Virus record (IMG/VR): IMGVR_UViG_3300029309_000011
Coordinates: 1 to 64,000 of that record
Direction: 5' to 3' (one strand)
DNA from: an uncultured virus (IMG/VR IMGVR_UViG_3300029309_000011)
Taxonomy: Duplodnaviria > Heunggongvirae > Uroviricota > Caudoviricetes
Length of the DNA stretch: 64,000 nt
In this document: one piece after another, positions 10,462 through 15,552 of the stretch
How positions within the stretch are numbered: the first letter of the stretch is position 1
Layout of the letters: the number at the start of each line of letters is the position of its first letter
Position numbers and translations under genes: made by a program
Notes under the pieces: generated by a model
The model's input: the letters and a program-made list of their open reading frames with translations, nothing else
Database searches by the model: none
Told to the model about the DNA's origin: nothing

Positions 10462-11532
10462 TCAACCTATAGCTGGAGCTGATAGAGCAACTGGTGTAGA
10501 TTCTGCACAAGCTAAATCAAGTGGGAAGTTGTGAGCGTTACGCTCATGCATTACTTCAAAACCAAGGTTAGCTCTGTTAAGGATGTCTGCCCATGTAGGA
10601 ACAATTTTGCCGTTAACGTCTACAACTGACTGGTTGAAGTTAAAACCATTTAGGTTGAATGCCATTGTGCAGATACCCATTGAAGTAAGCCATATGCAAA
10701 CTACTGGGAATACAGCTAAGAAGAAGTGTAAACTTCTACTGTTATTAAATGAAGCATATTGGAAGATCAAACGACCGAAGTAACCATGAGCTGCAACGAT
10801 GTTGTATGTTTCTTCTTCTTGACCGAACTTGTAGCCATAGTTTTGTGACTCAAGACCAGTTGTTTCTCTAATTAATGAAGAGGTTACTAATGAACCATGC
10901 ATTGCTGAGAATAATGCTCCACCAAACATTCCAGCTACGCCAGCCATGTGGAATGGGTGCATAAGAATGTTGTGTTCAGCCTGGAATACAAACATGAAGT
11001 TGAATGTACCAGAAATACCTAAAGGCATTCCGTCAGAGAATGAACCCTGTCCAAATGGATAAACTAGGAATACTGCAAAAGCTGCTGAAACTGGAGCTGA
11101 GTAAGCTACACAGATCCAAGGCCTCATTCCGAGTCTGTAACTAAGTTCCCACTGTCGTCCCATATAAGCTGAGATACCGATGAGGAAGTGAAATATGACC
11201 AATTGATATGGTCCTCCGTTGTATAGCCACTCATCAACTGTGAGGGCTTCCCATATTGGGTAAAAGTGGAGNNNNNNNNNNCCTGAGATGATGTTGTTTC
11301 CATATAAGAAAGAACCAGCTACTGGTTCACGAATACCGTCAATGTCTACAGGAGGAGCTGCTATGAACGCAATTATGAAGCATGTCGCTGCTGTAAGTAG
11401 GCAGGGGATCATTAAAACACCAAACCAACCAACATATAATCTGTTGTCTGTTGATGTTACCCACTTACACAGGGACTGCCAGCCTGCTAACAACTCGGAT
11501 TGATTCCGACGTTGTAGAACTGATGTTGCCAT
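10462..11532 (-). CDS. psbA: photosystem II D1 protein (10-N assembly gap at 11272-11281)
   Basis: Unmistakable D1 motifs ([28 protein letters not shown]); Prochlorococcus-type [16 protein letters not shown]; start taken as MATSVLQ at 11532. Confidence 0.98.
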
Positions 11533-11620
11533 AATAGTCCGTTGTATTGAATATAAAAAAAGCCATCCGAGATGACTTAACATAACTATACAATACAGAT
11601 GTCTTGAACTCGTGACATTA

Positions 11621-11640
11621 AAAAGAGGGCTTAAACCCTC
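11621..11640 (-). terminator. intrinsic terminator after the DUF4278 gene
   Basis: GAGGG-TTTAAG-CCCTC-TTTT on the minus strand. Confidence 0.6.
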
Positions 11641-11663
11641 AATTTTACTTTGCTAATCAGGGA

Positions 11664-11816
11664 TTAGACAGATGTTTTCTTGTCTTTAGTTTTAATTTCG
11701 TAGTGATAAATAGAACCACGATAGACATGTGTATTTTTGCCAGGTACAAGAACTAATTTTGAATGATCCTGATCCTTCTTTTGATAGGCAACACCACGAT
11801 AAGTAAGTTTTTTCAT
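11664..11816 (-). CDS. DUF4278-family small protein (50 aa)
   Basis: Manual translation MKKLTYRGVAY...HVYRGSIY with two YRG motifs. Confidence 0.8.
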   Translation of the reverse strand: MKKLTYRGVAYQKKDQDHSKLVLVPGKNTHVYRGSIYHYEIKTKDKKTSV

Positions 11817-11855
11817 AGGTTATACCCTGTAGACAATATTTAATATAACATTTTT

Positions 11856-11869
11856 GTAACAACCGCTAC
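11856..11869. promoter_or_regulatory. NtcA-type box GTA-N8-TAC upstream of the DUF4278 gene
   Basis: GTAACAACCGCTAC; minus-strand TATATT -10 candidate 8 nt downstream. Confidence 0.65.
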
Positions 11870-11921
11870 CGTTTGTGAAGATACATTAAATCTTAAGAAA
11901 ATATTAATATATCTTATATAT

Positions 11922-12030
11922 AAAAAGAATCCCCTCTCTGGTGTTCAAGCAGGGAGGGGAAACTTTTGTATGCCTTCTAAGAGAGATCATTTTCTTAGAA
12001 GAGTCACAGAGCTAGGAGGCAGCTGTGTAC
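11922..12030 (-). ncRNA. candidate sRNA: two hairpins plus terminator
   Basis: CACAG/CTGTG stem with CCUCCU loop, TTCTAAGA/TCTTAGAA stem, TCCCCTC/GAGGGGA terminator with T-tract. Confidence 0.5.
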
Positions 12031-12084
12031 AAATTTATATTGGCAAAAATAAAACTGTCTGCATGATTTATTTACAAACAGAAA

Positions 12085-12204
12085 TAAAAAGAGGAGTCGC
12101 ACCACCTCCTGTCCCTCAAGGCAGTGCGATCGTTTGCTAGGTGTAAGAAACAGTAAAAATTACACCTTCCTCTGGGGCTGCCACTGTTCTTCTTCGCCCC
12201 TGTT
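12085..12204 (-). ncRNA. candidate riboswitch-like or small RNA with alternative terminator/antiterminator
   Basis: Extended -10 TGATACTAT; P1 GGGGC/GCCCC; P2 AGGTGTAA/TTACACCT; AGGAG/CTCCT terminator with T-tract; overlapping 11-bp alternative stem. Confidence 0.55.
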
Positions 12205-12240
12205 CTATAATAGTATCAATATAGATTTTATCTACCCCCC

Positions 12241-12471
12241 ATGACAGCAATATTTAAACCAAAATGTATTGGCAAAGTGGCCGTAGATTCTGGAGTAATT
12301 TCTGTTATAGATGCAACACACATAAAAGTTAGTAAAGGTGGTGAAATTAATCTTCCTAGTTATAATTTGTATACATCTATAAATACGGAAATTGGTGATG
12401 GAGAGTACAACATCTACGAATGTCGAGATGACACAGGAGGACTTCGCAAAATCATTATTGATATCCAATAA
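12241..12471 (+). CDS. hypothetical protein
   Basis: ORF with TATAAT upstream at 12206. Confidence 0.55.
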   Translation: MTAIFKPKCIGKVAVDSGVISVIDATHIKVSKGGEINLPSYNLYTSINTEIGDGEYNIYECRDDTGGLRKIIIDIQ

Positions 12472-12632
12472 AACGGCTGGAATAGATCCCAGAGAAGATT
12501 ATAGAAAATGGTTACGTAGCACTCTTCATGATGTTTTAGATAAAGCTGTAGCTGGCGACGAAAAAGCAAAAAATTTTTTAAAAACTGCATTGGGATCTTT
12601 AATCTTATGGTCTAAAGAAGAAGACATAAAAA

Positions 12633-13713: not shown

Positions 13714-15552
13714 TTGATGTTAAGGTTCGTATTTGATTGTGAAACTAACGGGTTACTACACGAATTAAATACAGTGCATTCTCTTGTATTAAGAGATATA
13801 GATTCGGGTGATGTTACTAGCTGTTCCGATCATGACGGATACGAACCAATAGTAAATGGATTATATATGTTGTCTCAAGCCGATCTGCTTGTAGGCCATA
13901 ACGTAATTAACTTTGATTTTAGAGCTCTTAAAAAGGTATATCACAGCTTTAAATTAAAGAAAAATTGTAAAATAAATGATACTTTAATAGTAAGTCGAGT
14001 ACTATGGCCTGAGTTAGAGCCAGTAGATGAAGCAAAATTTTCTCACATACCACGAAAGTACAGAGGTAAACACAGTCTTGCTGCATGGGGTGAAAGATTA
14101 AATGTAAAAAAAATTAATTTTGAAGGTGCAGACAAGTATGAAGAAAGGTGGGATATATGGTCTAAAGAGATGCAAAAGTATTGTGAGGGAGATACTTTAG
14201 TTTCTTTAGAACTTTTTAAATACTTTGAAACTCAAAGTCTTGATTCAAGATGTTATGACTTAGAGCATGATTTTGCGAGAATCATGGCTAGGCAGGAAGC
14301 TTTTGGATTTCCTTTTGATGAGAAAAAAGCATTTGCACTGGTTAACGAATTAAAAAAACAAAGAGCTGAGATAGATGATCAACTACAAAAAGTATTCCCG
14401 CCAATCTCAATAGAAAGATTTTCTGAAAAAACGGGAAAACAATTAAAAACAAAAATTACTAAATTCAATCCAGCATCACGAAAACAAACATCTGAAAGAC
14501 TAAAAGAAAAATATCCAGAGATTACATTTGATAAAACTGAAAAGGGTAATGTCAAATTAGATGATGATGTACTAGATGATTTAGGTAAAAAATATTCAGA
14601 AGCTGCACTATTATCTAAATACCAATTGCTTAATAAAAGGTTAGGACAAATATCTGAGGGTAAAGAAGCTTGGTTAAAACATAGTCAAAGATATCATGAC
14701 GGAAGGATACATGGTTCAGTAATAACTAATGCCTGTGTATCGGGACGATGTTCACATCGTAGTCCAAATCTTGCTCAGACACCTCGTGTTGGTCAACCCT
14801 ATGGAGCCGAATGTAGAGCTTTATTCTATGCTCCTAATGGTTGGAGACAAGTAGGTTGTGATGCCTCTGGCCTTGAATTAAGAGCATTAGGTGCTCAGTT
14901 GGCATACTTTGATGGTGGAGAATATTCAAAATTAGTTAGTACGCCAGGTTTTGATATTCATACTCATAACGCCAAATTATTTGGAATATATGATGGTCAA
15001 GAAAAAATAGAAAAACGGACAAGAGAATTAGCAAAAACACTAATTTACGCAGTTCTTTATGGTGGTGGTCCAAATCGTATAGGCTCAATCCTTGATTCAA
15101 GTTTAAAACAGCAAGATCGACAAGATATGGGAAGAGAAACAATTGACACTTTTTATAGAAATCTACCTGCTATAAAAAAATTGAAAGATAAAGTAGATGA
15201 GAAGGTAACTCAAAGAGGATATCTTATTGGGATTGATGGTAGACATTTACAAATCAGGTCAAGACATTCAGCTCTAAATCAATTACTTCAATCTACTGGA
15301 AGTCTTTGTGTAAAGAAAGCAACGTGTATTCTTTATGAAGATTGTAAAGATAATCATTTACATTGGGGAATCCATTATGCATTTGTAGCTCACATTCATG
15401 ATGAGATACAAGCACTTGTAAAACCACAACACGTTAGCCTCTACAAAAAACTTGCAGTGGATTGCTTTCGAAAATCTGGAGAGTATTTTAAATTGCGATG
15501 TCCTTTAACAGGAGAGGTAAATGAGGGAAAAAATTGGCAGGAGACACATTAA
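13714..15552 (+). CDS. polA: family A (T7 gp5-like) DNA polymerase with 3'-5' exonuclease
   Basis: ExoI FDCETNG, GHNVINFD; motif A DASGLELR; motif B KTLIYAVLYGGG; motif C HIHDE. Confidence 0.95.
   Translation: MMLRFVFDCETNGLLHELNTVHSLVLRDIDSGDVTSCSDHDGYEPIVNGLYMLSQADLLVGHNVINFDFRALKKVYHSFKLKKNCKINDTLIVSRVLWPELEPVDEAKFSHIPRKYRGKHSLAAWGERLNVKKINFEGADKYEERWDIWSKEMQKYCEGDTLVSLELFKYFETQSLDSRCYDLEHDFARIMARQEAFGFPFDEKKAFALVNELKKQRAEIDDQLQKVFPPISIERFSEKTGKQLKTKITKFNPASRKQTSERLKEKYPEITFDKTEKGNVKLDDDVLDDLGKKYSEAALLSKYQLLNKRLGQISEGKEAWLKHSQRYHDGRIHGSVITNACVSGRCSHRSPNLAQTPRVGQPYGAECRALFYAPNGWRQVGCDASGLELRALGAQLAYFDGGEYSKLVSTPGFDIHTHNAKLFGIYDGQEKIEKRTRELAKTLIYAVLYGGGPNRIGSILDSSLKQQDRQDMGRETIDTFYRNLPAIKKLKDKVDEKVTQRGYLIGIDGRHLQIRSRHSALNQLLQSTGSLCVKKATCILYEDCKDNHLHWGIHYAFVAHIHDEIQALVKPQHVSLYKKLAVDCFRKSGEYFKLRCPLTGEVNEGKNWQETH

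Follow-up and report, generated by a model that had tools for sequence, protein, structure and literature searches.

The stretch of DNA analyzed here, called the window throughout, comprises the first 64 kb of an 82.5-kb record of an uncultured virus of the class Caudoviricetes (IMG/VR IMGVR_UViG_3300029309_000011), with an estimated completeness of 96% and an overall GC content of ~33%. The gene set of the record includes a family A DNA polymerase (13714-15552), a Prim-Pol/D5 primase-helicase, a gene resembling that for a cyanophage outer membrane protein, and psbA, and among the cultured phages of the collection only Synechococcus phage S-EIV1 is related to it (52.9% amino acid identity, 598-aa protein). 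A 424-nt gap between divergent genes (11817-12240) is bordered on the left by a DUF4278 gene followed by psbA and on the right by a gene for a 76-aa protein followed by the replication module. Inside this gap, on the minus strand, lies a conserved structured RNA of ~115 nt (12204-12090), in which a 5′ hairpin, P1, is followed by a three-way junction formed by a closing helix and two hairpins, P2a and P3. An earlier note on this DNA, made from its letters alone, had proposed an RNA here that attenuates transcription of DUF4278 and psbA. Comparison of homologs shows the fold, the predicted promoter position, and a kissing pseudoknot between the loops of P1 and P2a, and suggests a different role. 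The parts of the RNA and its promoter are as follows, from 5′ to 3′.

12207-12212, minus strand: -10-like hexamer TATTAT of the predicted RNA promoter, ending 6 nt before P1 (TATAAT on the plus strand at 12206-12211)
12090-12200, minus strand: structured core of the RNA, bounded by the 5′ base of P1 and the 3′ base of the closing helix; covariance model R1 describes it
12174-12200, minus strand: P1 hairpin, 12200-12196 with 12178-12174 (GGGGC/GCCCC); 5 of 5 pairs change on both sides, 98.6% paired
12195-12179, minus strand: L1, the 17-nt loop of P1, GAAGAAGAACAGUGGCA
12183-12189, minus strand: 5′ strand of the pseudoknot, GAACAGU, within L1, pairing with 12154-12148
12168-12173, minus strand: 5′ strand of the closing helix, AGAGGA, pairing with 12095-12090; 6 of 6 pairs change on both sides
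12139-12167, minus strand: P2a hairpin, AGGTGTAA (12167-12160) with TTACACCT (12146-12139); 8 of 8 pairs change on both sides, 99.2% paired
12159-12147, minus strand: L2, the 13-nt loop of P2a, UUUUUACUGUUUC, which holds the 3′ strand of the pseudoknot (12154-12148)
12130-12138, minus strand: single-stranded junction between P2a and P3, AGCAAACGA, conserved in alignments A2, A6, and A9
12097-12129, minus strand: P3 hairpin, an 11-bp stem of 12129-12119 with 12107-12097; 6 of 9 pairs change on both sides, 99.0% paired
12082-12095, minus strand: 3′ strand of the closing helix, UCCUCU (12095-12090), and U-rich tail, UUUUUAUUU

Homologs were gathered by several routes. A blastn search against loci fetched through two flanking proteins returned 12214-12088 as a discrete block in rearranged surroundings, and a search for the exact two-loop pattern yielded 17 contigs of viral origin, 117 or more stretches of metagenome DNA, and one odd-spaced match in a bacterial metagenome-assembled genome. 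Covariance model R1, built from 103 distinct sequences, matched the window copy at 12079-12204 (127.2 bits, E = 2.5e-31). We ran R1 on the window and 99 of 135 loci, omitting duplicates, 7 near-duplicates of the window's clade, and L041 and L144, two exact-pattern matches with odd spacing that were judged by eye to be due to chance. Full-length matches were found in 99 of these 100 sources, 96 of them at 104 to 134 bits, with L120, L093, and L068 scoring 71, 48, and 46 bits. L055 gave only two partial matches (17.7 and 16 bits); on this high-GC metagenome contig, both loop sequences stand in a different helix context (446-518, 572-617), and an Acido-Lenti-1 RNA (46 bits) lies 54 nt away on the opposite strand. 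Independent of any RNA pattern, an alignment of the 76-aa protein led to 38 viral loci, and in 38 of 38 the RNA is found on the opposite strand just upstream, in many cases with different loops. A generalized pattern with the pseudoknot core left free returned at least 119 viral contigs, and 61 of the 80 fetched match R1 at E < 0.01; GC content in this wider family of loci ranges from 0.33 to 0.68, with the loop sequences kept throughout. Scanning for L2 together with the tip of P3 gave 47 stretches with 12 true members, all from contigs already found, while scanning for L1 with the same tip gave a single true member among 80 loci, with noise making up the remainder. In total, the element is known from >230 stretches of DNA from uncultured phages and metagenomes, including psbA-carrying marine relatives of cyanophage S-EIV1, and it is present as a single copy in each of the two near-complete records searched, the 82.5-kb record among them. 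R1 found no match in S-EIV1 itself, where its prefilter passed 0 candidates, so this result is not proof of absence. An element of the wider family and its downstream protein had no match among 50,697 cultured-phage records. Separately, the 13-nt L2 sequence occurs in 35 small viral contigs (L145-L191) within an unrelated conserved stretch, mostly of 57 or 70 nt; these are not members of the family.

The homolog and covariation check that the earlier note had called for came out in favor of the fold. Across an alignment of 101 homologs, 97.9% of 2769 cells are paired, compared to 46 to 53% when partners are slid by 1 to 3 columns, and changes on both sides occur in 25 of 28 pairs; the observed measures were reached by 0 of 500 shuffles. 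The protein-anchored set of 38 loci gave a similar picture (96.4% paired, both-side changes in 26 of 28 pairs). For the closing helix, the evidence comes from helices 2 and 3 of the 101-row alignment, which are 92 to 94% paired. Structure alignments were fitted to R1's own structure and thus favor it, a bias offset by the slid controls and the variety of pair types, and we regard the secondary structure, as read from these alignments, as robust. G·U pairs make up 372 of the 2769 cells, or 13% of paired cells (by our own sum of the pair table), and since these would be A·C mismatches on the opposite strand, the folded strand is the minus strand of the window. The tip of P3 (UGCC/GGUG) carries a conserved tandem U·G/G·U, with U·G in 93 and G·U in 84 of 101 sequences. 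Thermodynamic folding of a 136-nt stretch gave -44.1 kcal/mol (z = -2.41), and 4 of 200 shuffles were as stable; the minimum-energy fold pairs CTCCTC (12095-12090) with AGAGGA (12173-12168), and covariation agrees.

P1 and P2a are connected by a kissing pseudoknot of 7 bp, formed by 12189-12183 in the loop of P1 and 12154-12148 in the loop of P2a. R1 cannot encode a pseudoknot, so support for this pairing comes from outside the model. Paired cells amount to 98.3% on alignment A6 and 98.7% on A9, compared to 25 to 62% in slid controls, and the pseudoknot covaries in three alignments. Its variable 3-nt cores, read directly from the sequences, are complementary in 63 of 64 sequences with 15 different combinations. 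A run of U on the 5′ side of L2 might form base triples in the major groove of the pseudoknot: in L324 and L330, C replaces one U of this run at the very place where the facing A-U pair has become G-C. Two other ideas about the fold were rejected. Pairing of the P3 loop (GRRACAG) with L2 is possible by complementarity in the marine clade, but in L068, L120, and the L331 group unrelated loops take the place of this one. A GUG-UAA mini-open reading frame (ORF) after the purine-rich closing strand would have no conserved start codon, since P2a covaries freely.

Several helices had been drawn in the earlier note at the coordinates found here. Its P1 and P2 (our P2a) are real helices, both covarying and almost always paired. 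Its 11-bp stem is also real, as P3, but not as an alternative fold: it belongs to the minimum-energy structure, covaries, and is constitutive. What failed was the switch built from these parts. The terminator it proposed, AGGAG (12110-12106) with CTCCT (12096-12092) and a T run, can be drawn in the window, but its conservation is no better than that of controls (73.9% paired, compared to 74.4% when slid; 496 of 500 shuffles as high), and one pair is broken in 74 of 98 sequences. Since CTCCTC pairs with AGAGGA to close the three-way junction, CTCCT is not paired with AGGAG. Behind the closing helix, a U-rich stretch (6 or more T in 9 nt) is seen in 23 of 174 distinct members, among them the window. 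On these counts taken together, mutual exclusion of terminator and antiterminator is not a conserved feature. Similarly, the pseudoknot suggested in the note, CAGUG (12186-12182) with CACUG (12126-12122), could form in the window, yet 0 pairs change on both sides, and 64 of 99 sequences cannot form its central pair. Altogether, the observation behind the note is partly confirmed and its interpretation partly supported, while the switch mechanism it proposed is wrong.

That note had also placed a promoter directly upstream of a structured minus-strand RNA, which both covariation and a conserved -10 box bear out. The extended -10 box it named, TGATACTAT, is present at 12218-12210, but the conserved hexamer is TATTAT at 12212-12207, 3 nt downstream. 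In 114 of 114 distinct upstream sequences, a TANNNT motif starts 10 to 14 nt before P1; shifting the search 25 nt upstream, as a control, found it in 7 of 114. The commonest form of the motif is TATTAT. In the wider family, TANNNT is present in 60 of 65 loci, including 32 of 34 in which an ORF ends 0 to 37 nt upstream. The distance from hexamer to P1 is nearly fixed, while that from the hexamer to the start codon of the 76-aa gene varies by >40 nt; we therefore read the hexamer as the promoter of the RNA, with transcription predicted to start at P1 (~12201-12199). The 7-mer TATTATA (12206-12212) can be read as a -10 box on either strand, and promoters of the RNA and of the 76-aa gene could lie back to back, overlapping and possibly mutually exclusive.

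Metatranscriptomes gave a weak hint of expression. One 172-nt contig, from two runs of one sample, is identical to 12090-12240 and then continues into the sequence of a relative; such contigs reveal neither strand nor transcript ends. Across three metatranscriptome runs, coverage besides the element was found solely at 11600-11679, and the uncovered parts are uninformative.

The 3′ end is less uniform than the core. Distances from the RNA to the next terminator range from ~10 to >120 nt across relatives, and a whole manA RNA can intervene. Transcription of the window copy may partly end at the closing helix and the U5 that follows, and members of the window's clade share an extension that ends in a canonical terminator.

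11922-12089, minus strand: 3′ extension of the window's clade, with 70 to 76% identity over ~170 nt in at least 12 relatives
11959-11950 with 11940-11931, minus strand: stem of the canonical terminator hairpin in the 3′ extension, with tail AUUCUUUUU

Within the extension, just 3 of 28 pairs of the consensus fold change on both sides. It contains a conserved hairpin (12026-12006, minus strand) whose loop, CCUCCUA, resembles the anti-Shine-Dalgarno sequence and could serve as a pairing seed for ribosome-binding sites. As an antiterminator for 11959-11922, the 3′ strand of the closing helix seems a poor candidate: the two are complementary, yet both are pyrimidine rich and their spacing ranges from ~10 to >120 nt. 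In two loci, a tRNA begins right after the closing helix (L068, tRNA-Leu at 547-633; L353, 771-852), and RNase P cleavage could thus set the 3′ end of the RNA.

The genes and control regions around the RNA are the following.

11842-11910, minus strand: promoter region of the DUF4278 gene, with TCTTAA repeats, tandem GTA-N8-AAC and GTA-N8-TAC (11884-11856), and then TGTTATATT (hexamer 11847-11842)
11664-11816, minus strand: small IF17-like DUF4278 gene (Pfam PF14105, E = 5.4e-06), 3′ of the RNA and not part of it
10462-11583, minus strand: psbA
12241-12471, plus strand: divergent gene for a 76-aa, weakly DUF4241-like protein, a frequent but not universal neighbor of the RNA

A short run of N in psbA near 11290 (XXXX in the translation) is a masked stretch and not a feature of the gene. 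The 76-aa protein has relatives in 282 clusters, every one unnamed; DUF4241 matches 7 of 27 members of its family (best E = 4.3e-4). It is acidic, its predicted structure is poor (pLDDT 59.3), and its gene is missing upstream in 42 of 98 loci derived from the RNA pattern, and on these grounds we rejected it as a partner of the RNA. Searches of the same 50,697 phage records with the intergenic region (blastn) and with the 76-aa protein (tblastn) returned no match. A replication origin at the element was likewise rejected, as the GC-skew profile tracks gene orientation with no clear signal, and no tRNA or transfer-messenger RNA was found in the 64-kb window.

Control of the DUF4278 gene appears to lie in its own upstream region. 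Its promoter region is conserved in the window and in all 17 viral loci, in all of which the gene follows the RNA on the same strand. A GTA-N8-TAC motif lies 6 to 11 nt before a TANNNT hexamer in 75 of 81 distinct DUF4278 upstream regions, and 61 of 81 carry a second site, GTA-N8-WAC, one base upstream; in the window, the tandem sites (11884-11856, minus strand) are followed 8 nt on by TATATT (11847-11842). The consensus binding site of NtcA is given as GTAN8TAC, canonically centered near -41.5 (PMC3898017). In the DUF4278 promoter, the upstream GTA site lies near this canonical activator position and the downstream site overlaps the -35 region, an arrangement that suggests nitrogen control of the phage IF17-like gene and perhaps of psbA too. 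Glutamine aptamers, which commonly precede IF17-like DUF4278 genes (PMC6212724), lie between this promoter and the gene in three relatives: Glutamine-II aptamers in L018 (63.6 bits) and L021 (56.9 bits) and a glnA-type aptamer in L325 (46.3 bits), each away from the element. These aptamers and a manA RNA, all between the element and DUF4278, occupy 493-550 and 1182-1373 in L018, 918-976 in L021, and 603-683 in L325. The earlier note had seen no fit of its RNA to the glutamine riboswitch consensus, and the window itself has no glutamine riboswitch: models RF01739 and RF01704 gave 0 matches in it at gathering scores, and none was found in 11500-12500 or 11780-11960 at E up to 10. The window either lost these aptamers and manA or never carried them. 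Attenuation of DUF4278 and psbA by the RNA, the target named in that note, is accordingly unlikely, given a conserved promoter of the gene's own, glutamine riboswitches of its own in three relatives, and the occurrence of the element without any co-directional gene.

What lies next to the RNA differs widely between lineages. Downstream we found DUF4278, a tRNA, unknown proteins (of 265 or 146 aa, or structural-like), or convergent genes, and not the consistent class of regulated genes expected of a riboswitch; of 10 further loci examined, 9 have a gene 3′ of the RNA that converges on it (ThyX-like, 2-oxoglutarate [2OG]-oxygenase-like, and others). In L018, the RNA is followed 63 nt downstream by a manA RNA, then by a terminator and a gene on the opposite strand. 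In another lineage, a protein family of 34 members (190 to 236 aa) ends 0 to 37 nt before the element in 31 of 34 cases, and Pfam LAGLIDADG_2 matches 3 of the 21 members submitted. This weakly LAGLIDADG_2-like family looks like a free-standing homing endonuclease gene that settled beside a conserved RNA gene. In L358, L377, and L379 (e.g., L379:319-891), as well as in 31 further loci, the -10 box of the RNA lies inside the 3′ end of the LAGLIDADG-like ORF. The RNA is constant, while its neighbors change.

No RNA family in Rfam 15 accounts for the element. The Rfam search proposed in the earlier note, which had raised the possibility of a new class, was made with the 4227 covariance models of Rfam 15, and none matched the element, either in the whole window at gathering scores or in 11500-12500 and 11780-11960 at E up to 10; manA, wcaG, PhotoRC-I/II, and the Yfr families gave no match over it. 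Matches in 53 related loci were limited to manA, glutamine aptamers, tRNA, and Acido-Lenti-1, none of them within the element. A group I intron model found no match at E up to 0.01 in 20 endonuclease-linked loci, and we rejected a group I intron also on the order of helices, a hairpin and then a three-way junction, and on the promoter, rather than an exon, that precedes the window copy. The loop sequences were not found in 8 supplement files of the 2010 survey that describes manA, wcaG, and PhotoRC (PMC2864571), nor in 6 supplement files of a 2023 catalogue of viral structured RNAs (PMC10690425), 3 files of which lay outside the search; in full-text literature, the loop strings occur, among the matches listed, only in papers on unrelated subjects. 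With those 3 files and the supplement of a 2017 survey (PMC5737381) outside the search, an unnamed catalogue entry may already cover the element.

We favor, with moderate confidence, the reading that the element is a stand-alone small RNA gene of phages whose structured product acts through its shape on a broadly conserved partner. Of the features expected of an independent small RNA gene, a promoter is seen by computation, as is independence from neighbors. The core has no defined 3′ end; the window's clade has a canonical terminator at 11959-11922, and in two loci a tRNA lies directly 3′. Host RNA polymerase would start from the sigma-70-type -10 box at 12212-12207, so that the transcript would begin at the first base of P1, and its first ~110 nt fold into P1 and the three-way junction, with the loops of P1 and P2a kissing over 7 bp. 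In the window's clade, transcription would probably continue through the 3′ extension to the terminator at 11959-11922, giving an RNA of ~280 nt. The functional unit would be a rigid fold that presents near-invariant loop and junction bases, and the RNA would act in its own right, binding a protein machine or small molecule that is conserved across very different hosts, and would not switch terminators for DUF4278 and psbA.

Several points weigh against this reading. Function is inferred only from anatomy and context. Our first searches demanded exact loops, so the sets they returned would show some of their loop invariance by design, and the idea of base triples draws on just two sequences, with L319 departing from the pattern. 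DUF4278 follows the RNA on the same strand in 66 of 98 pattern-derived and 24 of 37 protein-derived loci, which are S-EIV1-like, and most of these loci have no intervening terminator and would thus also allow a role in cis. Because TAnnnTA is a -10 box for the 76-aa gene as well, its conservation could partly serve that gene. Finally, the 172-nt metatranscriptome contig extends 36 nt past the predicted start, and DNA carry-over may explain it.

The most serious rival is a cis-acting leader, either a riboswitch aptamer or an RNA that modifies polymerase in the manner of put, deciding read-through into DUF4278, psbA, and beyond. The element stands at the very 5′ end of a leftward transcription unit, terminator-like hairpins at 11959-11922 and 11640-11625 precede co-directional genes in the window, and the 17 viral loci share with the window a same-strand DUF4278 gene. 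Aptamers typically have features such as its pseudoknot and its ~40 unpaired, nearly invariant bases; in L018, a riboswitch candidate, manA, is its tandem neighbor; and a universal target, for example RNA polymerase, would fit well with loops conserved over 33 to 68% GC. However, 9 of 10 loci examined have a convergent gene directly 3′, which leaves read-through no gene to reach; a terminator distance of ~10 to >120 nt, with room for a manA RNA, does not look like an expression platform of fixed design; DUF4278 is equipped with a promoter and riboswitches of its own; and downstream genes are wholly different between lineages (DUF4278, tRNA, or the 265- or 146-aa proteins). We consider such a leader unlikely on balance, while giving it more weight than any other alternative. 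The more specific attenuator of the earlier note, with its AGGAG/CTCCT terminator and 11-bp antiterminator, has next to nothing to recommend it: both hairpins can be drawn in the window with a T run after them, but P3 is constitutive, the terminator hairpin is at shuffle level, CTCCTC covaries with AGAGGA, and the T run is absent from most members.

Alternatively, the RNA might cleave or be processed, cutting polycistronic transcripts to free the message of the endonuclease, that of structural genes, or a tRNA. Its position 0 to 37 nt after the LAGLIDADG-like ORF and before other genes, in 31 of the 34 loci of that lineage, and directly before a tRNA in two loci would fit this idea, and a junction with a loop-loop contact broadly recalls small ribozymes. 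No Rfam ribozyme or group I intron matches, though, the order of helices is unfit for a group I core, and a promoter with its start at P1, found also in the endonuclease-linked loci, leaves nothing upstream to cleave off; we therefore regard processing as improbable. Pairing of loops between molecules, yielding rings or chains that serve as a scaffold as in phi29 packaging RNA, would account equally for a three-way junction and for two loops whose complementarity is kept while their sequence changes, since comparative data cannot separate pairing within a molecule from pairing between molecules. Against it, the RNA gene sits beside replication and host-takeover genes and not packaging genes, the replication module differs (Prim-Pol/D5-type primase-helicase, family A polymerase), and Rfam scans return no family for the element, with Rfam coverage of the phi29 packaging RNA itself unverified. 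This idea seems to us very improbable. An element acting as DNA, be it a bidirectional promoter, a replication origin, or the target of a homing endonuclease, could be suspected from a divergent control region that adjoins the replication module, a -10 box readable on both strands, and endonuclease genes adjoining in another lineage. Compensatory changes, found for 25 of 28 pairs of the helices as well as for the pseudoknot, together with the G·U pairs that make up 13% of paired cells and exist on one strand only, are instead the signature of selection on a folded single strand, and leave a purely DNA-level role barely credible.

Structured RNAs encoded by phages are seldom known, and most of them are orphans; this one is absent from Rfam 15, and its comparative support is unusually clean, extending to a covarying tertiary contact. 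Its gene marks the border where the replication module gives way to genes for host metabolism (the IF17-like gene and psbA), and what controls the nitrogen-linked DUF4278 gene would be its NtcA-type promoter and, in some relatives, known glutamine riboswitches, rather than this RNA. Loop sequences kept across hosts of very different base composition point to a universal bacterial target, which, if loop conservation does reflect one, is directly testable. More tentatively, and as a possibility we would not put at even chances, the RNA may represent a widespread, previously unrecognized phage class in which the kissing pseudoknot, possibly stabilized by a triplex, forms a pocket or surface that binds something shared by bacteria of widely differing GC content. 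Candidates for this target are RNA polymerase, the ribosome, ribonucleases, and universal metabolites. It would then be a new host-takeover RNA or a new class of riboswitch or ribozyme, conserved enough for homing endonuclease genes to settle alongside it.

Among known systems, copies of the phi29 packaging RNA joined loop to loop act as a scaffold. The element resembles it in its three-way junction and in having two loops that covary so as to stay complementary; it differs in the type of genome that carries it, and nothing ties it to packaging. The put RNAs of phage HK022, which modify the transcribing polymerase, are likewise promoter-proximal folded phage RNAs ahead of terminators and long operons. 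Compared by description, the element is larger, is pseudoknotted, and persists without co-directional genes. Its run of U beside an A-rich pseudoknot strand resembles the triple-helix pseudoknots of SAM-II and preQ1-II, whereas its own pseudoknot is a kiss of two hairpin loops within a larger junction, and its triples are suggested by two of three informative sequences. Glutamine riboswitches of the glnA type (RF01739) and of the Glutamine-II or Downstream-peptide type (RF01704) likewise occur upstream of DUF4278 genes; the aptamers in L018, L021, and L325 are nevertheless separate elements located between the RNA and the gene, unrelated to it in size, fold, and conserved bases. A further parallel is offered by manA (RF01745) and wcaG (RF01761), described in the 2010 survey as orphan structured RNAs of marine cyanophages (PMC2864571). 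As far as that survey characterizes them, they and the element are alike in being phage borne, strongly structured, and pseudoknotted, without a known ligand, and near photosynthesis genes. They have no similarity to it in sequence or model, and their helices are laid out differently. Unlike manA and wcaG, the element has a promoter of its own, occurs without a downstream gene, and spans phages of 33 to 68% GC.

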